NCBI GenBank assembly: GCA_964585065.1 | Contig: CAZPCB010000001.1 | Location: 14,037-78,036 of the forward strand | Reading direction: 5' to 3' | Source of the DNA: an uncultured Candidatus Saccharibacteria bacterium | GTDB lineage: Bacteria; Patescibacteriota; Minisyncoccia; SW-4-49-11 | Length of the DNA stretch: 64,000 nt | Shown: one piece after another, positions 2,949 through 57,850 of the stretch | How positions within the stretch are numbered: the stretch's first letter is position 1 | Layout: the number at the start of each line of letters is the position of its first letter | Notes under the pieces: model-generated | The model's database searches: none | What the model was told of the DNA's origin: nothing | What the model saw: only the letters and a program-made list of their open reading frames with translations | Made by a program: the position numbers and the translations under genes

Positions 2949-3210
2949 CCACCCCTCAAGAGGGGAATTAGCTCAGTCCACACCCGTCGACTTCGTCGAC
3001 ACCCTCGCCGGCGAGGGAAAGTTTTATTGTCCTCCTTTGGAGGAGGTGGCCGCTAGGCCGGAGGTGGATAGAGTTTGAGTTTGTATTTTATCCACCCCGT
3101 CCAGCAAAGCTTGCCACCCCTCAAGAGGGGAATATATACAATGTACTGTCCTAAAAATTCCCCTCTTGAGGGGTGGATGTCTTTAGACAGACGGGGTGGA
3201 AAGTATTACA
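2949..3210. repeat. composite GC-rich palindromic repeat cluster (modules 1, 2 and 3; see findings)
   Basis: Seen directly in the sequence. 'ccacccctcaagaggggaat' occurs at 2949-2969 and 3114-3133, with its inverted copy 'attcccctcttgaggggtgg' at 3167-3186. The outer inverted repeat is 'tccaccccgtc' (3091-3101) with 'gacggggtgga' (3200-3210). 'ccctcgccggcgaggg' lies at 3002-3017. The 'tgtcctcctttggaggaggtggccgctaggccggaggtgga' element lies at 3028-3068. All are GC-rich hairpins in an AT-rich intergenic region. Confidence 0.7.
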
Positions 3211-14139: not shown

Positions 14140-15486
14140 ATGGCAGGGAATAATTCTCTAGATTCATTTACCAAAAATCGCAAAGTGATTATTATTGCGG
14201 GAGTAGCTATATTAGCTATTGTTATATTGATGCTTGGTAATGCACTTGGATTTAAAATTGGAGGTGAGAAAAAAGTACAAAAAGCAAATTTGGTAGTATG
14301 GGGAGTCTGGGATGAAAGCGAGACAATGACGAAATTGGGAAGTGATTTTCGTAAAACATATCCTAATGTAAGTATAGAATATCGTAAATTCAAGCCACAA
14401 GATTATGAAACAGAATTAGTGAATGCTTTAGCTGAGGGAAGAGGACCAGATATATTTGCAATAGAACATACTTGGCTCGGAAAGCATAAGAATAAATTAG
14501 CTTCAATGCCAGAAGAAATTATGACGCTTAAAGATTATCAAGATCGTTTTGTAGATGTGGTCAATCAAGACTTTATTGACGAGGGTAAAATATATGGATT
14601 TCCCCTATATACCGATACCTTAGCATTATTATATAATAAAGATGCTTTCAATGATGCAGGAATTGCAAATCCACCAGCAACTTGGGAAGAATTACAAAAA
14701 ATTGTCCCGGAATTAACTAAAATTGATCAATTTGGTAATATTAAACAGGCAGGGGTTGCACTTGGTACTGGGGATAATATAAATCGCTCACCAGATATAT
14801 TGATGGCATTAATGCTACAATCGGGAGCTCAATTTACAGACCCTAAGGATACAAGTCAAATTATATTCTCACAAAGTAAGAATGTCAATGGACAAAATAT
14901 AAATCCTGCTCAATTATCCCTGGCCTATTATACTGACTTTGCTAATCCACGAAAGGGAGTATATACCTGGAATTCAACCTTAAATAATTCAATAGATGCT
15001 TTTTATGAAAGAGAAGTAGCTATGATATTTGGATATTCATATCAGGTAGAAGCAATTAAAGTGAAAGCCCCAAGACTTAATTTTGCAGTAGCACCTCTTC
15101 CTCAAGTATCATTAGATTCTGGACTTGCTAACTTTGCAAATTATTGGGGATATGGAGTCAGCGGTCAATCCAAATACCCAAAAGAATCTTTTGCATTTCT
15201 CAAATCAGCCACCGAAAAAGAAAATGCCCAAGATTATTTCTTGAAAACTAAGCGTCCAACAGCCAGAAGAGATTTAGTAGATACTCAATCTCAAGATATA
15301 GATTATGGGGTATTTGTAAAACAAATTTTACAAGCAAAAACTTGGAGACAACCAGATAATAATTCAGTAGATAAAATATTTATTGAGGCTATTAATTCAG
15401 TAAATTCAGGATTGCTTGATTACTCAAAAGCTATTAGTCAAGCTGAATCAGAAATACAAACATTAGCTGATAATGTGAAAAAATGA
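14140..15486 (+). CDS. extracellular solute-binding protein (ABC-type, family 1, sugar-binding-like), N-terminal TM anchor
   Basis: N-terminal TM anchor, then 'LVVWGVWDE...YRKFKPQDYETELVNALAEGRGPDIFAIEHTWLGKH...YGFPLYTDTLALLYNKDAF' typical of SBP_bac_1. Its stop overlaps the next gene's ATG (ATGA). Confidence 0.7.
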   Translation: MAGNNSLDSFTKNRKVIIIAGVAILAIVILMLGNALGFKIGGEKKVQKANLVVWGVWDESETMTKLGSDFRKTYPNVSIEYRKFKPQDYETELVNALAEGRGPDIFAIEHTWLGKHKNKLASMPEEIMTLKDYQDRFVDVVNQDFIDEGKIYGFPLYTDTLALLYNKDAFNDAGIANPPATWEELQKIVPELTKIDQFGNIKQAGVALGTGDNINRSPDILMALMLQSGAQFTDPKDTSQIIFSQSKNVNGQNINPAQLSLAYYTDFANPRKGVYTWNSTLNNSIDAFYEREVAMIFGYSYQVEAIKVKAPRLNFAVAPLPQVSLDSGLANFANYWGYGVSGQSKYPKESFAFLKSATEKENAQDYFLKTKRPTARRDLVDTQSQDIDYGVFVKQILQAKTWRQPDNNSVDKIFIEAINSVNSGLLDYSKAISQAESEIQTLADNVKK

Positions 15487-16820
15487 AATATATAAAGTTC
15501 AGTATAGTTTTTGGTATAATATTCTTAGTAGTTTCATTTTTTAGTATTAACTATACTAATGCACAGAGTGCAGATGCAGCTTGTAGTGCAGGGGCAACAT
15601 CATTAGAGCAAAACTGTACTTTTCAAAATGGAAGCTCTCGTTTAAATGGAAAATGCCAGGTTAAAGATAAAAATAATCCAGGTTTAGGATTAACTTGTCG
15701 TACTAGCTTAGGATCATCCTGCTCAGGTGATACTTGTCAAAATGGATTAGCCTGTATTAATCAGGTTTGTTCCAGTCCAAGAGGGGCTAAAACTCAAGGT
15801 CAATCTTGTTCAGGGAATGGAAATGAATGTATTGCAGGTCTTGAATGTAGAAATTTTATATGTACAAAAGAAGCTGCCATTACTGGTGGAGGGTCTGGGC
15901 AAACTGGAGGTGGTCAAGTCGGTACCCCTGGAGGTGGTCAAGTCGGTACCCCTGGAGGCTCAACAGGGGCAGAAACAGGGCTAGTAAAATGTGGAGTGAG
16001 TAGAGATTGTACCATTTGTGATATATTTATTTTAATTCGAGATGTCTTTAATTTTGCTCTAGGACTACTGGCTTCACTCGCGGTATTAAGCGTTGTGATT
16101 GGGGGAGTATATATACTCACCTCAGCGGGTAATCCAGGAGCAGTAAGTACAGGATATGGCATTATTACCAATGCAGTGATTGGACTATTATTAGTCATGG
16201 CGAGTTTCCTTCTATTCAGCTTTTTATTAGTAGGACTTGGATTCCAAGAACAAAATTTCTCAGCCGTACTTACTTTTCAACCAGGAAAAATATTCGAGGT
16301 AAAATGTGATACTGCTAGTACTTTTAATGATAATGGAGGTAATGGAGGAGGAGCAGCTACAACAAATAGGGGGCCTGTCACATGTAAAAATAGTCAATGT
16401 TTAGCAAAAAACCCTCAGTTAAAAGATCAAATAGAAAAAAGTGCTGCAAAATATGGAATAGAATCAAATCTACTATTAGCTATAATTGATGAAGGTGAGG
16501 GGTGTAATCCTTCTACTACGGCTGCATGTAGTAGATCCTATAGTGATAGTGATTGTTCAGCTGGTTTTACACAATGTACTCCATTAATACGAGCTAAATT
16601 TACCGGAATAAGCGACCCAAAAGCTAGCTTAGATAAGATTAAATCTGATTTATCTACTGATATTGATTGTGGAGCTTGGCTTATTAAACAAAATGCAGGA
16701 GTTTGTCCTCTTTCAGATGTCCGAAAGGTAGCAAGCTGTTATAATGCTGGCTTATCTGGGGCATGTGGTACTCGTAATTATTGTCAGAGAGTTTCAAGTT
16801 ATTATAATGGTTGTAAATAA
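15483..16820 (+). CDS. secreted Cys-rich protein with internal TrbC/VirB2-like pilin hydrophobic hairpin and C-terminal lytic-transglycosylase-like (SLT) domain
   Basis: Signal peptide; CxxGxxC repeats ('CSGDTCQNGLACINQVCS', 'CIAGLECRNFIC'); Gly-rich tandem 'GGGQVGTP' x2. Two-helix hydrophobic segment '...LASLAVLSVVIGGVYILTSAGNPGAVSTGYGIITNAVIGLLLVMASFLL' matches the downstream small pilin-like proteins. C-terminal 'IESNLLLAIIDEGEGCNP...SAGFTQ...CYNAG' resembles SLT motifs (ES, GLMQ-like, AYNAG). Confidence 0.55.
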   Translation: MKYIKFSIVFGIIFLVVSFFSINYTNAQSADAACSAGATSLEQNCTFQNGSSRLNGKCQVKDKNNPGLGLTCRTSLGSSCSGDTCQNGLACINQVCSSPRGAKTQGQSCSGNGNECIAGLECRNFICTKEAAITGGGSGQTGGGQVGTPGGGQVGTPGGSTGAETGLVKCGVSRDCTICDIFILIRDVFNFALGLLASLAVLSVVIGGVYILTSAGNPGAVSTGYGIITNAVIGLLLVMASFLLFSFLLVGLGFQEQNFSAVLTFQPGKIFEVKCDTASTFNDNGGNGGGAATTNRGPVTCKNSQCLAKNPQLKDQIEKSAAKYGIESNLLLAIIDEGEGCNPSTTAACSRSYSDSDCSAGFTQCTPLIRAKFTGISDPKASLDKIKSDLSTDIDCGAWLIKQNAGVCPLSDVRKVASCYNAGLSGACGTRNYCQRVSSYYNGCK

Positions 16821-16833
16821 TTATAGAAATAAT

Positions 16834-17517
16834 ATGAGTTTTAAAAGTTACTTAATATCAATAATAGTATTTTGTATAGCATTGTATCCATTCAAATTTG
16901 TTAGTGCTGATAGTTTAAATATTGATTTATATTTTGATGGTAATAATATAAGATTAGATAATAAAGTAGATAATCCAATTAATTATATTAAGACTGAGGG
17001 TATTGATAAATATCAATCTGGAGGTGTAGATGATAGATATAAGTTAGAAATTGTATCTGATGGTACTGTTACATATTCACAAATTATAACACCTCCACAG
17101 ACTCCATCCCCATTTCAAGTGTTGCTTCCTAATATTAATATCGCAGACAAGGTGAAAGTTATATCTAATAATTCGATTACTTCTGAATTTGATATATCAC
17201 AATATAAGACATGTTTTAGTAATTTGATATGTGAATATGAAAAAGGAGAAAATATTAATTCCTGTCCCTCTGATTGTAATAATGATAATACTAAATTCTC
17301 AGAGGAAACTCAGAAAACTCTTCAAAAAGAAAATGGAATAATTCGGGATGAAGCGGGAACTGTATTATTGTCAACCAATACTCCTACTCCTAATACTGAC
17401 ACAAATTCAGAGACAGAACAATCCAACACATTAGGGAATATTGCTATTTTAATAGGAGGAATAGTATTCCTTGCTGGGGGACTGGGGCTATTTATTTGGA
17501 AATTAAGAAAAAGATGA
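16834..17517 (+). CDS. secreted protein with C-terminal membrane anchor (hypothetical)
   Basis: Signal peptide 'MSFKSYLISIIVFCIALYPFKFVSA', Asn/Thr-rich body, C-terminal TM plus basic tail 'IAILIGGIVFLAGGLGLFIWKLRKR'. Real ATG at 16834. Confidence 0.45.
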   Translation: MSFKSYLISIIVFCIALYPFKFVSADSLNIDLYFDGNNIRLDNKVDNPINYIKTEGIDKYQSGGVDDRYKLEIVSDGTVTYSQIITPPQTPSPFQVLLPNINIADKVKVISNNSITSEFDISQYKTCFSNLICEYEKGENINSCPSDCNNDNTKFSEETQKTLQKENGIIRDEAGTVLLSTNTPTPNTDTNSETEQSNTLGNIAILIGGIVFLAGGLGLFIWKLRKR

Positions 17518-17547
17518 TATAATTAAAAGTAATTAAATACAGATATT

Positions 17548-18195
17548 ATGAAATTTATTTTATCGACAAGTTTAGCAATTTTATTTGTAATAGGATTTAT
17601 GGGGAATACCTATAATGTCTTTGCTGCTTGTGGGACTGGTCCAGATTGTGCCTCAGGACAGGTATGTGTAACAGTAGATGGTGCTACAAAATGTTTAAAA
17701 AATGAGGCGAATAGTAGTGGTGTTTGTGCGGGGGACTCTTCTATTAAATGTGGATCTGGACAGGCATGTATTCAAAATAAAGCAAAGGAGATTGTATGTG
17801 CTCCTGTACCTAAAGCTAATACATTACAGCCAGCAGCAGATAATACAAAAAATCCAGATAGTGCAGCTAATGGAGGAGGTAACACTTCTGGGGGAGGGGG
17901 ATTATTAGAGGGACTCAATGCTTTTGGTAGTGCAGATTCTGGACTTAATACAGAGGGAACTCTCATTGGGTTTATTGCTAATATTATTCGCTGGATATTA
18001 GGATTACTTGGAACAGTATTCTTTGTAATCATAGTTTTACAAGGGTATCTTTATATGACATCTTCAGGAGATGCGAGTAAAACAGCAGCAGCTACGGGGG
18101 CTATTACTAATGCAGTAATAGGACTACTGATTATTATGGGAGCTTTCCTCATTACTAATTTTGTAACAAGTGCTTTGATTGCCGCGGGCCCTTAA
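17548..18195 (+). CDS. TrbC/VirB2-like pilin-family protein with N-terminal Cys-rich module
   Basis: Signal peptide; 'CGTGPDCASGQVCV...CGSGQACIQ' module; Gly-rich linker. Hydrophobic hairpin 'IIRWILGLLGTVFFVIIVLQGYLYMTSSGDASK...AITNAVIGLLIIMGAFLITNFV'. Confidence 0.55.
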   Translation: MKFILSTSLAILFVIGFMGNTYNVFAACGTGPDCASGQVCVTVDGATKCLKNEANSSGVCAGDSSIKCGSGQACIQNKAKEIVCAPVPKANTLQPAADNTKNPDSAANGGGNTSGGGGLLEGLNAFGSADSGLNTEGTLIGFIANIIRWILGLLGTVFFVIIVLQGYLYMTSSGDASKTAAATGAITNAVIGLLIIMGAFLITNFVTSALIAAGP

Positions 18196-18205
18196 TATCT
18201 CATAT

Positions 18206-18553
18206 ATGATAGAAAAATTTATATCTTATTTCATAATAGCAACAGCGAAAGCCCAGGAGACATCGCCTCCTCCTATATTAGCTATACCTACAGGAACAGG
18301 AGTGGGGGAGCAAGGAGATCTGTTTACTTTTGTGTCAGCTATTGTGCAATGGGGATTGGGATTAATAGGGATAGTATTATTTGTACTTATACTCTTTTCT
18401 GGATTCCAATATGCAACAGCAGGGGGCGACTCTAAAAAAACTGAAGAAGCTATTAGTAGAATTACTTCTGCAGTAATCGGAGTATTCATTGTAGGGGTGG
18501 CTTTTATACTATCCAATGCAGTATTAGGATTTGTTTTTAGTCTAGGATCTTAA
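18206..18553 (+). CDS. TrbC/VirB2-like pilin-family protein (small)
   Basis: 'IVQWGLGLIGIVLFVLILFSGFQYATAGGDSKKTEEAISRITSAVIGVFIVGVAFILSNAV' is the two-helix hairpin with a charged loop. ATG at 18206. Confidence 0.5.
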   Translation: MIEKFISYFIIATAKAQETSPPPILAIPTGTGVGEQGDLFTFVSAIVQWGLGLIGIVLFVLILFSGFQYATAGGDSKKTEEAISRITSAVIGVFIVGVAFILSNAVLGFVFSLGS

Positions 18554-18653
18554 TATACTGACTTATCCACAATAGTATCACTTGCATAGTAATATAAGAT
18601 ATGATAGTATAAAAACATAGAACATATTATTCAATAATTATTAAGATATTCTT

Positions 18654-19037
18654 ATGAATACTTCCCAGATAAAATCAATAGCAACAAGAGCATTATTACC
18701 TGTATTAGTATTAGCTCCTACTTTAGCTGGAGCTGCAACTCCCGTAAAAGATACTAGAGTCATAGGTGAAATACCTCAAGTAGCTGGTACTAATCAATCT
18801 ACTGACCTTGTGGCTACAGTACAAGTGGTTATTCAATGGGCATTAGGATTTATCGGAATTGTAATATTCATTATTTTCTTATTTGCAGGATTTGAATATG
18901 CAACAGCAGGAGGAGATGAAGGAAAAGCAAAAACTGCACAATCTCGAATGATTAACGCGGTAATTGGATTAATTATTATATTCTTTGCCTTTGTAGCTTC
19001 AAATGCAATATTGTCATTCGTATTCCCAGGAAATTAA
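18654..19037 (+). CDS. TrbC/VirB2-like pilin-family protein (small)
   Basis: Signal peptide, then 'VIQWALGFIGIVIFIIFLFAGFEYATAGGDEGKAKTAQSRMINAVIGLIIIFFAFVASNAIL'. Confidence 0.55.
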   Translation: MNTSQIKSIATRALLPVLVLAPTLAGAATPVKDTRVIGEIPQVAGTNQSTDLVATVQVVIQWALGFIGIVIFIIFLFAGFEYATAGGDEGKAKTAQSRMINAVIGLIIIFFAFVASNAILSFVFPGN

Positions 19038-19060
19038 TCAAATTGATAGATACTATGAAA

Positions 19061-19091
19061 CAATAAAAAGGGATATAATCCCTTTTTATTG
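19061..19091 (+). terminator. rho-independent terminator-like hairpin ('caataaaaagggatataatccctttttattg')
   Basis: Perfect 8-bp GC-containing stem with flanking A/T runs, directly after the 18654 gene. Confidence 0.55.
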
Positions 19092-19181
19092 TTTAGAGAA
19101 TACATATTCAAATAATATAGTATTCTTGTCAGATAATAGAATACTTGATATACTTGTAATATATAGAATAGTAAAATAGAT

Positions 19182-19595
19182 ATGAGAGTCTTATTGATTA
19201 TAATAGCTTTATTAATAGGGGGATTTGTATTAAGTTCAAGTATTTCCTTGGCTCAAAGAGCCCCTGATGCTACTCTCCCTGATCCAGGAACAATCCCTAT
19301 TAATACAGGTATATCTGAGGGACCGACCCTCATAGAGACAGTATCTCTTATTATAAGATGGATATTAGGATTTATTGGTATTATAGTATTTGTGATTTTC
19401 TTATTTGCAGGATTTGAATATGCAACAGCAGGAGGAGATCAGAGTAAAGCAGAAAATGCTAGTAAAAGAATGGTAAATGCAATTATAGGACTTATTATTA
19501 TATTCTTTGCCTTTGTAGCATCCAATGCTGTATTGGAATTTGTATTCCCTCCAGATACTACTGCCAATATTAATACCTTATTTAATAGCAATTAA
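19182..19595 (+). CDS. TrbC/VirB2-like pilin-family protein (small)
   Basis: 'IIRWILGFIGIIVFVIFLFAGFEYATAGGDQSKAENASKRMVNAIIGLIIIFFAFVASNAVL'. About 80% identical in the hairpin region to the 18654 product. Confidence 0.55.
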   Translation: MRVLLIIIALLIGGFVLSSSISLAQRAPDATLPDPGTIPINTGISEGPTLIETVSLIIRWILGFIGIIVFVIFLFAGFEYATAGGDQSKAENASKRMVNAIIGLIIIFFAFVASNAVLEFVFPPDTTANINTLFNSN

Positions 19596-19596
19596 T

Positions 19597-20487
19597 ATGA
19601 AATATATTATCTTTTCACTTTTATTAGGTATAGGATTAATAATCCCTCAGAATAGCTTTGCTCAGACAGCTGCTCAAAATACAGCTTGCTCAGGTAAAAA
19701 AAATGGAGATGCATGTACCTATCAAAGAACAGTAACTACTGGAGGAAAAAATACTCCCAGAGGAACTGCAACGCAGACTGAAAGTGGTTTTTGTGATAGG
19801 ACCAATGCAGATAGTATAGCAAAAAATAATCCATTGACTTGTAAAACACTTGATTCTGAGAAGAATGGATGGGAAGATTGTGTTATCATTGGAGATGCTT
19901 GTAAATCTGGTAGCGAATTAGGTGTATGTAGAGCTCCAGGGCCTAAAACAGGACCATGTGACATTAGTAAAAAACCACCAGGTAGTCCGGGGGGAATATC
20001 TCCAGCAAAATGTGGCACATCAACATGTACAGGTGGACAAGTATGTGTGCAGCAAGGTGGAAGCCCAGTTTGTACTAATGATTTAACAAAAAATGGAAAA
20101 TGTGGCACATCAACATGTACAGGTGGGCAAGTATGTGTACAGCAAGGAGGAAGTCCAGTTTGTACTAATGATGCTGCTACACCAAGTACATCAACTAATA
20201 ATGGAACTACTACAGATGCATCATCCCCCCAAAGTGTAGGATTTGTGAACCCTATAAGGTTTAACTCTATTCCTGAGCTTATCGCAGGTATTATTAATGC
20301 CTTATTAGGTATATTAGGAGCGATTACTGTGGCTATTCTAGTTATGTCAGGATTTAAATATATGACAAGTTCTAATCCAGGAGAAGTAGGGCAGGCTTTG
20401 GATGGAATTAGGAATGCAGTTGTGGGACTTATGATAATTATGGGGGCTTTCCTCATAACACAATATATTATCTCGGCTTTGGTTTAA
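19597..20487 (+). CDS. TrbC/VirB2-like pilin-family protein with Cys-rich tandem-repeat N-domain
   Basis: Signal peptide 'MKYIIFSLLLGIGLIIPQNSFA'. 30-aa tandem repeat 'KCGTSTCTGGQVCVQQGGSPVCTND' x2. C-terminal hairpin 'LIAGIINALLGILGAITVAILVMSGFKYMTSSNPGEVGQALDGIRNAVVGLMIIMGAFLITQYII'. ATG at 19597, not the track's 19525. Confidence 0.55.
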   Translation: MKYIIFSLLLGIGLIIPQNSFAQTAAQNTACSGKKNGDACTYQRTVTTGGKNTPRGTATQTESGFCDRTNADSIAKNNPLTCKTLDSEKNGWEDCVIIGDACKSGSELGVCRAPGPKTGPCDISKKPPGSPGGISPAKCGTSTCTGGQVCVQQGGSPVCTNDLTKNGKCGTSTCTGGQVCVQQGGSPVCTNDAATPSTSTNNGTTTDASSPQSVGFVNPIRFNSIPELIAGIINALLGILGAITVAILVMSGFKYMTSSNPGEVGQALDGIRNAVVGLMIIMGAFLITQYIISALV

Positions 20488-56569: not shown

Positions 56570-56676
56570 AGTTATTACATTATATCTATAAACGCCAATT
56601 TTTGCAATATTATGAATGATATATATTGTAGATAAAATTCTAGTTATGTAGGGGGGAACCTTTTAGGTGTAAGTAT

Positions 56677-56786
56677 TCCACCCCACCCCATGGGCACCCC
56701 TCAAGAGGGGAATTTTTCGTACAGGACATTGGTATATATTCCCCTCTTGAGGGGTGGTCACTCTCATACTTTTGTATGGGAGTGGA
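56677..56786. repeat. GC-rich long inverted-repeat element (module 1 pair plus outer arms), second copy of the 3091-3210 element in opposite orientation
   Basis: 'cacccctcaagaggggaat' at 56695-56713, 'attcccctcttgaggggtgg' at 56738-56757. Outer arms 'tccaccccacccca' and 'gacggggtgga'. The spacer is the reverse complement of the 3134-3166 spacer. Confidence 0.7.
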
Positions 56787-56867
56787 CGGGGTGGATAGAA
56801 AAGCGAGGTATATATTATTGACATCAAAACATATATTTGATACTATTAGATAGTAGTTATACATAAA

Positions 56868-56940
56868 GCGGGTATCGTATAAAGGCTAATTATCTCTGCC
56901 TTCCAAGCAGATGATGAGGGTTCGAATCCCTCTACCCGCT
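56868..56940 (+). tRNA. tRNA-Gly (anticodon TCC)
   Basis: Manual fold. Acceptor GCGGGTA/TACCCGC. Anticodon stem TCTGC/GCAGA with loop CTTCCAA. T-arm GAGGG-TTCGAAT-CCCTC. Discriminator T. The D-stem is imperfect. Confidence 0.7.
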
Positions 56941-56965
56941 CATTCATAAATAGTAAAAAATTAAA

Positions 56966-57850
56966 ATGAGATATAAATATATACCATTATCTATAACTTT
57001 ACTTATAGTATCTTATTTTATATTTGCTACAAATACTTTTGCTCAAGTGACTTATCAGTCCTATACTAATTTTCCGGGAGTGGGTAGAATAGGTGATTTG
57101 TGTCAACTGATTACTGCTCTTTGGTATCTTGGATTTGCAACTCTCTTTACTGCGGTACTCGGTATGTTTATATATGGGGGGTATATGTATGTGACAGCTG
57201 GAGTGAATGCTGGGAAAGTTAATCAAGCTAAGGAAATATTTACTAATACCATTACTGGACTCATTATAGGACTTTCTATATTTATTATTATTAATGTTAT
57301 TAACCCAGGATTATTGCAAGGGAATTGTAGTATTTCTTCTCCAGGATCGGCTGGGAGTAATTCTACTTTAGGAGCAGATAGTGGGGCACCTGTTGCGGGG
57401 AATGGTTCAGCTTCATTATTAGAAGTTGCTCGCAGAGATAGTGGTGGTAAAAAGCCTGATGGACGTTGTTATACACATGTAGCAAAATATATTAATCAAG
57501 CTGGATTTTGTGGTATTCCTAAAAATGGATTTGATAGTAAAATACCCTCTGCATATTGGCCAGAGGCAAGACAATTTGGAGAATATTTAAATCAAGGGAA
57601 TAATGCATCAAATCTTGGTATTGTGAAATTACCAACGGATAATCCATATAGAGCACCTGCTGGGTCAATTGTAGTTGTAAGAGCAGATAGACCCGGCTGT
57701 GAGGGTAGTCTCTGTCACCCTACTGCTGGTGATATAGCCGTTGCTGATGGACAGGGTTCATTTTATAATGGAGGAGAAATGGGCTATGGAGGGTCACAAA
57801 ATTATCCACCAGGGAATAATTATGTTATAGGAATATATGCTTGTAAATAA
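56966..57850 (+). CDS. TrbC/VirB2-like pilin-family N-domain fused to a C-terminal Cys/His peptidase-like (CHAP- or NlpC/P60-like) cell-wall hydrolase domain
   Basis: Signal peptide, then 'LITALWYLGFATLFTAVLGMFIYGGYMYVTAGVNAGKVNQAKEIFTNTITGLIIGLSIFIIINVI' (two-helix pilin hairpin). C-terminal about 170 aa with 'DGRCYTHVAKYINQAG' (candidate nucleophile Cys) and 'GSLCHPTAGDIAVADG' (candidate His). Confidence 0.5.
   Translation: MRYKYIPLSITLLIVSYFIFATNTFAQVTYQSYTNFPGVGRIGDLCQLITALWYLGFATLFTAVLGMFIYGGYMYVTAGVNAGKVNQAKEIFTNTITGLIIGLSIFIIINVINPGLLQGNCSISSPGSAGSNSTLGADSGAPVAGNGSASLLEVARRDSGGKKPDGRCYTHVAKYINQAGFCGIPKNGFDSKIPSAYWPEARQFGEYLNQGNNASNLGIVKLPTDNPYRAPAGSIVVVRADRPGCEGSLCHPTAGDIAVADGQGSFYNGGEMGYGGSQNYPPGNNYVIGIYACK

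Follow-up and report, generated by a model that had tools for sequence, protein, structure and literature searches.

A VirB2-type pilin module with exchangeable C-terminal cassettes, including a putative cell-wall hydrolase of an unannotated family, at the rpoC–secA locus of a patescibacterium

Introduction

Why would a pilin carry an enzyme, and whose cell wall would that enzyme open? The question is raised by a gene in a 64-kb stretch of DNA from an uncultured Candidatus Saccharibacteria bacterium (assembly GCA_964585065.1, contig CAZPCB010000001.1, positions 14,037–78,036; hereafter the window, in which all coordinates are counted from its first nucleotide). In this gene, at positions 56966–57850, a pilin module of the VirB2 type, which belongs to type IV secretion systems (T4SSs), is continued by a C-terminal domain that a preliminary description of the DNA had likened to Cys–His cell-wall hydrolases. 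Arrays of VirB2-like pilins occur widely in Patescibacteria; S. epibionticum cannot do without them, and their function is unknown (Quinonero-Coronel et al. 2025, PMC12102498; Wang et al. 2023, PMC10633639; PMC12857230). Epibiotic growth of the sole species tested depends on the patescibacterial T4SS and its pilin arrays, for which neither a cargo nor an effector nor a mechanism is known (PMC10633639, PMC11665869, PMC12857230). In the literature outside subscription-only sources, we found no description of hydrolase-fused pilins in Patescibacteria or the candidate phyla radiation.

Here, we describe the anatomy of the gene, the replacement of its C-terminal part between strains, and the family to which its C-terminal domain belongs. 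On balance, the product is probably a pilin-borne cell-wall hydrolase that acts outside the cell, with an exchangeable enzyme cassette that here belongs to an undescribed papain-fold family. All of the evidence is computational. The pilin arrays themselves were already known; what is new is a hitherto undescribed family of predicted papain fold on a pilin carrier, with cassette swapping at the level of strains.

Results

The gene combines a signal peptide, a pilin module, and a C-terminal domain

The open reading frame (ORF) is divided into the following parts (aa, amino acids).

56966..57850, plus strand: complete coding sequence of 294 aa with an ATG start, comprising signal peptide, pilin hairpin, linker, and predicted papain-fold C-terminal domain (C-domain)
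56966..57043, plus strand: Sec-type signal peptide, aa 1–26 (MRYK, a hydrophobic core, and TNTFA with cleavage before QV), by inspection
57044..57346, plus strand: VirB2-type T4SS_pilin module, aa 27–127, from PF18895, phmmer, an AlphaFold2 (AF2) hairpin, and 92–95% DNA identity with sister strains
57347..57843, plus strand: strain-variable cassette (linker plus C-domain), from blastn breakpoints, synteny, and clustering of the tails
57347..57412, plus strand: Gly/Ser/Asn-rich linker, aa 128–149, by inspection; outside the C-domain profile, as the family match begins at aa ~147–150
57413..57847, plus strand: C-domain, aa 150–294 (145 aa), a putative peptidoglycan amidase/endopeptidase, from AF2, fold matches, and domain partners

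The 294-aa ORF with signal peptide, hairpin, and linker is present exactly as the preliminary description had stated, and the three stretches quoted there were found in the translation (the hairpin at aa 71–111, DGRCYTHVAKYI at aa 165–176, and SLCHPTAGDIAVADG at aa 248–262). Inspection places the Gly/Ser-rich stretch at ~aa 123–149. The gene is real, conserved, and under purifying selection, and it is not a chance ORF, because an identical protein (P0001) exists in a public protein collection, orthologs occupy the same locus in related genomes, and the ratio of nonsynonymous to synonymous substitution rates (dN/dS) against the ~77%-identical ortholog of a more distant relative (L057) is 0.06 in the pilin module and 0.14 in the C-domain. 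The signal peptide is kept in the sister-strain alleles in the protein alignment, and in the longer homologs P0002–P0009, homology starts at aa 28, just past the signal peptide.

The module that follows matches the Pfam family T4SS_pilin (PF18895) over profile positions 23–71 of 71 with an E value of 1.7e-4 and a score of 22.0 bits, which is below the cut-off of 26.6 bits; precomputed PF18895 matches exist in several close homologs. Comparison by phmmer of the hairpin with the six pilins of an array elsewhere in the window (ORFs 15483–20487) gave 15.6–29 bits for all six, and the hairpin and the array pilins have in common the motif G[FY]xYxT[AS]G-(loop with K)-A-x3-[IV]xN[AT][IV]xGL[IL]I. Helix 1 (aa ~45–77) is connected to helix 2 (aa ~82–112) by a short Lys-containing loop that begins at aa 78–81, and helix 2 is followed by the junction motif INPGLLQGNCSxxSPG. 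The AF2 model of the module is a helical hairpin (H19–51/H56–86 in mature numbering) with a mean predicted local distance difference test (pLDDT) score of 71.5. A Foldseek search of the PDB with this model returned generic helical hairpins only (E ≥ 2), a non-specific result that is expected for so simple a fold. On the strength of the sequence matches, the proposed homology between this VirB2-type hairpin and the array pilins of the window was accepted. The hairpin of the fusion subfamily is bracketed in the alignments by two Cys residues, Cys46 and Cys121, which are predicted to lie outside.

The C-terminal cassette is replaced between sister strains

In sister strains, the locus has the syntenic order rpoC, a hypothetical gene, (tRNA-Thr) L33, Fur on the minus strand, tRNAs, the pilin-fusion gene, secA, a hypothetical gene, and an M16 peptidase gene. 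Two alternative alleles of the fusion gene are P0012, a 302-aa product of pilin plus M23 found on 16 contigs, and P0010, a 274-aa product of pilin plus an M15_3-like tail found on 11 contigs. Comparison by blastn with L051, L052, L054, and L055 revealed that (i) DNA identity is 91–95% on both flanks of the cassette; (ii) DNA homology breaks at 57346 (codon 127, just past INPGLLQGNCSISSPG); and (iii) homology returns at 57844–57847, the stop codon. The protein alignment of the alleles shows an equally sharp junction. With the two alternative alleles found on 16 and 11 independent contigs, a mis-assembly is an unlikely explanation of the apparent swap.

The tails of the 63 retrieved proteins with the pilin module are M23 (29 proteins), M15_3-like (22), the C-domain (8), and others (4). 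Many of these proteins have N-terminal extensions such as VanY, which is also counted among the alternative tails. The modular "pilin-effector" architecture that had been suggested for the window is strongly supported by this variety of tails, together with the swap at the orthologous locus. The ten pilin-fused copies of the C-domain form one clade, whose sisters are PG_binding_1 proteins, and the GC content at third codon positions of the cassette is 0.15, fully at the level of the host. The fusion is therefore old within the lineage, and its alleles have been shuffled between strains. The same two observations rule out that the cassette came in recently from a donor of high GC content.

Polymorphic toxins such as CdiA-CT, Rhs-CT, and PAAR-CT exchange cassettes at a conserved junction motif. 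The pilin-fusion gene resembles them in that a conserved N-terminal carrier, which would serve as the delivery module, is followed at a sharp and defined junction by unrelated C-terminal enzymes that are swapped between close relatives. Unlike them, it has no cognate immunity gene behind the cassette. The window also showed no orphan cassettes, and the pilin cassettes are all cell-wall peptidases and not nucleases, deaminases, and the like.

At the Fur–secA locus of the more distant relative (L057, 4001–7640), two different pilin-hydrolase genes stand together with a duplicated tRNA-Gly. One product of 514 aa consists of an N-terminal extension (sub-threshold Amidase_3, E = 0.044), the pilin module, and the C-domain; the locus also includes a 246-aa ORF and P0039, a pilin fusion of 331 aa with an M15-like tail. 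Here, pilin-hydrolase genes have expanded in tandem, with tRNA-Gly as the seed.

The C-domain belongs to an unannotated family with a predicted papain-like fold

Scans of the query and 32 family members against Pfam, NCBIfam, and PHROG assigned the C-domain to no family, and an exhaustive HMMER search of 1.8 billion representatives returned only 218 C-domain clusters at 50% identity. On these searches, the C-domain defines an unannotated family without a Pfam, NCBIfam, or PDB entry. In P0174 (1868 aa), 26 separate stretches match C-domain residues 17–66, the region of the Cys helix, so that this long protein is made up of tandem repeats of one part of the domain.

The AF2 model of the C-domain, built from a 32-sequence alignment, has a pLDDT of 94.5 and a predicted template modeling (TM) score of 0.90. 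In the model, Cys168 is located at the N-terminus of a helix (model residues 24–35), which is followed by a helical insert and four strands. The sole coherent structural neighbors are lysins of the CHAP, NlpC/P60, and Amidase_5 groups, and the similarity is weak (best E value 2e-3, TM score ≤0.60). Those in the PDB are Lys2972, CD630_03720, and Spr; matches in BFVD reached a probability of up to 1.0, with an E value of 2e-3 and a TM score of 0.60. These neighbors speak for the papain-like domain that the preliminary description had expected, but the weakness of the matches and the lack of membership in any hidden Markov model (HMM) family of this group speak against a firm assignment. A divergent papain-like fold of the NlpC/P60–CHAP clan is thus a prediction of the model that is supported, not proven.

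The predicted catalytic residues are Cys, Asp, and Asn

Four codons of the C-domain are of interest for catalysis.

57467..57469, plus strand: Cys168, the putative nucleophile, from conservation, the Lys2972 alignment, and the helix position in the model
57716..57718, plus strand: His251, variable as His, Asn, or Asp in the family alignment, in the loop preceding a strand
57731..57733, plus strand: Asp256 (motif AGDI), at the canonical position of the catalytic His, from conservation, profile alignment, and the start of model strand E112–116
57767..57769, plus strand: Asn268 (motif F-x-N-G-G), at the predicted position of the third polar residue of the NlpC/P60 triad, from conservation and spacing

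Conservation was counted over 187 near-full-length family members. Cys168 is conserved in 95%, Asp256 in 97%, and Asn268, which lies 12 residues past Asp256, in 99%. His171 is a His in 68%, and position 251 is occupied by His in 70%, Asn in 20%, and Asp in 5% (Asn or Asp in 49 of 186 members, about 26%). In members without His251, whose sequences are otherwise highly conserved, a compensating His was searched for and none was found. The canonical Cys–His dyad was therefore ruled out as a feature of the family.

The step of 12 residues from Asp256 to Asn268 would correspond to the usual spacing before the third residue of the triad. The catalytic residues of Lys2972 are C35 and H101 (PMC10980517). 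A local profile–profile alignment with this lysin (P = 0.0014) placed "PDGxC" on "TADC", with Cys168 on the catalytic Cys, and paired "APxGSIVVV" with "QRGDIILM". In the global profile alignment, which was non-significant, "AGD256IAV" stands opposite "GGH101VGV", in agreement with the strand positions in the model. Both comparisons are limited by the shallow set of Lys2972 homologs (68–100% identity). His251 is located in a loop, five residues before the strand on which CHAP and NlpC enzymes bear their His. From sequence and model together, the family appears to carry Cys–Asp–Asn (C168, D256, and N268) at the canonical positions; Cys168 is most likely the nucleophile, and His251 and His171 would be dispensable neighbors.

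These observations bear on the proposal that the domain is a canonical CHAP-type amidase with a Cys168–His251 dyad, that is, a divergent member of CHAP or NlpC/P60. The Cys does precede the His in the order of CHAP domains, most members retain His251, and the fold neighbors are lysins of that clan. When the HMMs named for a check of the proposal, CHAP (PF05257) and NlpC/P60 (PF00877), were searched, 2 of the 32 family members touched the CHAP model at an E value of ~0.1 (~0.12), but the query itself matched neither model even at E ≤ 10. Together with the Asn or Asp at position 251 in about a quarter of the family and the Asp at the canonical His position, this makes a canonical CHAP amidase improbable. 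As a conserved feature of the family, the Cys of the proposed dyad stands and the His does not.

The likeness to the NlpC/P60–CHAP enzymes (Lys2972, Amidase_5/PF05382, PDB 8tw1; Escherichia coli Spr/MepS, PDB 2k1g) thus lies in the predicted fold, with the Cys at the N-terminus of a helix on an antiparallel sheet, in the strand motifs ("xPGS-IVVV" for "xxGD-IILM" and "AGDIAV" for "GGHVGV"), and in the peptidoglycan-binding partners. By contrast, the C-domain does not belong to their HMM families, and has an Asp at the position of the catalytic His and no invariant His. Its Cys helix is also separated from the sheet by a longer helical insert.

The pilin-fused clade has gained two Cys pairs with perfect covariation (C182/C293, 10 of 10; C245/C250, 5 of 5), a pattern that fits disulfide stabilization outside the cell. 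Because of the signal peptide, these pairs, and Cys46 and Cys121 on either side of the hairpin, an extracytoplasmic location of the product is predicted.

Domain partners point to peptidoglycan as the substrate

The C-domain is always located at the extreme C-terminus of its proteins. In P0074, it is fused to PAAR, and the P0074 gene is directly downstream of VgrG (Phage_GPD/base_V) and upstream of DUF2169, which is a textbook effector slot of the type VI secretion system (T6SS). Several further PAAR–C-domain fusions exist. The family thus has the context of T6SS effectors, and the gene at 56966–57850 itself has neither PAAR nor a T6SS context. Other fusion partners are PG_binding_1/2/3, LysM, ricin lectin, SLT, and Hydrolase_2, and in giant proteins, VanY, M23, and DD-peptidases of the S11/beta-lactamase type.

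Giant proteins of 1691–2162 aa (P0206, P0253; locus L033 405–5480) combine VanY, an S11/beta-lactamase-type DD-peptidase, and the C-domain, and one protein of this kind is from a Patescibacteria metagenome-assembled genome (MAG). They look like multi-warhead cell-wall-degrading proteins.

The distribution was read from species-representative genomes. The C-domain occurs in Myxococcota/Polyangia, Herpetosiphonaceae and other Chloroflexota, Sericytochromatia, Blastocatellia, and Riflebacteria; within Patescibacteria, it occurs in just one species-representative genome. Sericytochromatia often have multiple copies (L011–L027, Sericytochromatia/Tanganyikabacteria MAGs), with at least 3 paralogs in, for example, isolates 243584 and 593175. 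A conserved lipoprotein-like gene stands upstream of some Sericytochromatia copies and could be a candidate immunity or partner gene. Homologs at 54–63% identity were also found in marine algal transcriptomes (MMETSP; P0047, P0061, P0072, P0103, P0107–P0114, and others), P0107 being a transcript of Florenciella parvula. The algal homologs have signal peptides, Cys-rich C-terminal tails, and mostly Asn at the position of His251, which suggests an antibacterial hydrolase passed horizontally to algae, contamination being an alternative.

From this network of partners, peptidoglycan is the likely substrate, and interbacterial antagonism or predation is the usual setting. For the gene studied here, the same target is predicted because of the PAAR slot, the peptidoglycan-related fusion partners, and the peptidoglycan peptidases that serve as its alternative cassettes. 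Another chemistry of the papain fold (a deamidase, a transferase, or a protease acting on a protein or lipid-linked substrate), a metal-binding domain formed by C168, H171, H251, and D256, or a dead binding module would instead be compatible with the missing canonical His, with a C-x2-H...H-x4-D pattern that may be read as a metal site, and with the lack of any family or PDB annotation. PAAR-linked toxins, moreover, often have cytoplasmic targets. However, the C-domain is fused elsewhere to seven kinds of peptidoglycan-binding or peptidoglycan-cleaving domains and is interchangeable on the pilin carrier with M23, M15, and VanY peptidases; the near-invariant C168, D256, and N268 speak for catalysis rather than mere binding, and H171 and H251 vary too much to be obligatory metal ligands. 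A function other than peptidoglycan hydrolysis is accordingly quite unlikely.

The gene stands among housekeeping genes, 36 kb from the pilin array

The window is chromosomal and rich in housekeeping genes (gyrA, metG, gatB, rpoB/rpoC, fusA, S12/S7, and secA), and its SecA is 85–86% identical to proteins of Minisyncoccia/Candidatus Parcubacteria MAGs, which identifies its source as a patescibacterium. The gene was said to lie far from the main pilin array, beside a tRNA and a GC-rich repeat, and the distance is indeed 36 kb. The features upstream of it are as follows.

56868..56941, plus strand: tRNA-Gly(UCC), 24 nt upstream of the gene, marking the conserved 5′ boundary of the locus
56818–56846, just upstream of tRNA-Gly: sigma-70-like promoter match TTGACA-17-TACTAT with a TG extension, a consensus match only and the best of the region
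56593–56811, between tRNA-Trp and tRNA-Gly: GC-rich structured element with a core palindrome at 56695–56756

A tRNA-Trp lies further upstream than tRNA-Gly on the opposite strand. The pilin-fusion gene may be co-transcribed with tRNA-Gly, given the promoter match; no Shine–Dalgarno sequence is evident in the 24-nt gap before the gene. The GC-rich element has a GC content of 49%, against 35.5% for the window, and a predicted RNA folding energy of -91 kcal/mol (z = -6.8), and an Rfam search with it returned no family. The palindromic core of 63 bp is found again, at 94% identity, between genes elsewhere in the window (also 3114–3176 and 2949–2969), and the element is missing in L051 and L054 and present in L052 and L055. 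It looks like a small dispersed mobile repeat of the repetitive extragenic palindrome or miniature inverted-repeat transposable element type.

The array is flanked by gyrA, a methyltransferase gene, and a solute-binding protein gene on one side and by SPFH, S12/S7, and EF-G on the other. All six of its ORFs match PF18895, five above the cut-off (35.9–41.6 bits) and ORF 15483 just below it (26.1 against 26.6 bits).

15483–16820: ORF of 445 aa at the head of the array, with a Cys-rich N-terminal region and a T4SS_pilin hairpin at aa 184–248

The C-terminal region of ORF 15483 has a weak SLT match (E = 0.048) and contains the SLT family-1 motifs ES(327), GFTQ(361), and CYNAG(419) in the right order; a sequence search of the PDB with this ORF returned no match. 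To judge from these motifs, ORF 15483 is probably a fusion of pilin and lytic transglycosylase. The preliminary description had named it as another pilin–hydrolase fusion, which the hairpin and the ordered motifs bear out in part; the SLT match is weak. It had also assigned the two fusions to different hydrolase classes; this is plausible (SLT-like and papain-like), although the side of ORF 15483 is weakly evidenced.

The surroundings raise the possibility that the product is a housekeeping autolysin or a substitute for VirB1, in which the hairpin would be a membrane anchor or an assembly-site tag and the enzyme would remodel the producer's own wall during growth, division, or passage of a T4SS or pilus. 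The neighbors of the gene are core housekeeping genes (rpoBC, Fur, tRNAs, and secA), the locus is kept from strain to strain, purifying selection on the gene is strong, and no immunity gene is adjacent. ORF 15483 at the array head resembles a pilin–SLT fusion with VirB1-like chemistry. Furthermore, VirB1 homologs are missing from most of the patescibacterial genomes that encode VirB2 homologs (PMC12102498), and a pilin-fused hydrolase could substitute for them. An autolysin does not readily account for a catalytic cassette that is swapped among unrelated classes while its flanks remain ~92% identical, which is typical of loci of antagonism or host interaction, nor for the use of the C-domain outside Patescibacteria by T6SS PAAR effectors and predatory lineages, nor for the two different pilin-hydrolase genes in tandem in L057. 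We therefore regard a role on the producer's own wall as rather doubtful.

Discussion

We favor a hydrolase displayed by a pilin carrier and turned outward, which could work as follows. The product would be exported by the Sec pathway and its signal peptide cleaved, after which the VirB2-type hairpin would be inserted with both ends outside the cytoplasm, by analogy with the topology of VirB2. In VirB2 and TraA pilins, both ends lie outside the cytoplasm, and C-terminal extensions of F-pilin are displayed at the surface. The flexible linker of ~25 aa would tether the Cys168-dependent enzyme to the cell surface or to a T4SS-type pilus, and the enzyme would open the wall where a host or competitor cell is contacted, presumably by cutting a peptide or amide bond of peptidoglycan. 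Recombination at the ...INPGLLQGNCSxxSPG junction would swap the cassette for M23 or M15-like peptidases, as in polymorphic toxins.

Several results weigh against this account. Regarding the enzyme, neither the CHAP and NlpC/P60 HMMs nor any other hydrolase-family model in Pfam, NCBIfam, or PHROG matches the C-domain, and PDB searches with single sequences and profiles revealed no relative. No His is invariant anywhere in the 187 family members, and a standard Cys–His mechanism therefore cannot be assumed; the mapping of Asp256 to the His position relies on the non-significant global alignment, the motif, and secondary structure. The fold and the catalytic assignments are the weakest links of the whole account. 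Regarding delivery, the 64-kb window contains no gene of T4SS machinery of the VirB4, VirB6, or VirD4 type, and a pilus would have to assemble with a C-terminal load of 150 aa on its subunits, a compatibility that may be questioned. Regarding antagonism, no immunity gene stands beside the gene at 56966–57850, as secA starts 67 nt past its stop codon, and across 47 loci no conserved family of immunity-like neighbors was found, only lineage-local clusters, in a survey that relied on naive ORF calling in high-GC genomes.

Three other known systems place the protein in context. The T6SS amidase effectors Tae1–Tae4 and their eukaryotic "dae" descendants are small papain-fold domains, and the Tae families use Cys and His. 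The C-domain family resembles them in its PAAR fusion beside VgrG and DUF2169 and in a patchy spread, suggestive of horizontal transfer, that includes secreted eukaryotic homologs. It differs from them in that it has no match to the Tae4 Pfam family, no conserved periplasmic immunity partner was detected, and the carrier studied here is a T4SS-type pilin and not VgrG, PAAR, or Hcp. With the VirB2/TrbC pilins and the patescibacterial arrays (PF18895), the protein shares the signal peptide, the two hydrophobic helices, the short basic loop, sequence homology, and the taxon. Whereas the array pilins end a few residues past helix 2, the product of 56966–57850 adds a linker and a 145-aa putative enzyme and is encoded at a separate locus. 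In the VirB1 lytic transglycosylases and the multidomain peptidoglycan hydrolases of the PrgK type, a hydrolase is likewise tied functionally to a T4SS component. These are, by contrast, separate proteins with SLT, CHAP, or muramidase domains that are unfused to a pilin and act on the donor's own wall.

Taken jointly, the observations allow a broader reading, which we put forward tentatively and hold to be possible rather than likely. VirB2-like pilins may carry exchangeable lytic warheads, so that the T4SS-type pilus would be a filament that bears peptidoglycan hydrolases along its length or at its tip and breaches the host wall with them, and the cassettes would diversify by recombination in the manner of polymorphic toxins to match the chemotypes of host walls. 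The C-domain would then found a new papain-fold family with a Cys–Asp–Asn center, whose members are found in T6SS effectors of predatory bacteria, on patescibacterial pilins, and among the proteins secreted by marine algae.

The predicted active site without the canonical His is of interest for enzymology and for the discovery of antibacterial lysins. The family serves T6SS PAAR effectors and seems to have passed to algae. For Patescibacteria, the finding offers a testable hypothesis, namely that the pilin system displays wall-cutting enzymes where the cell meets its host and that the choice of cassette tracks the host range.

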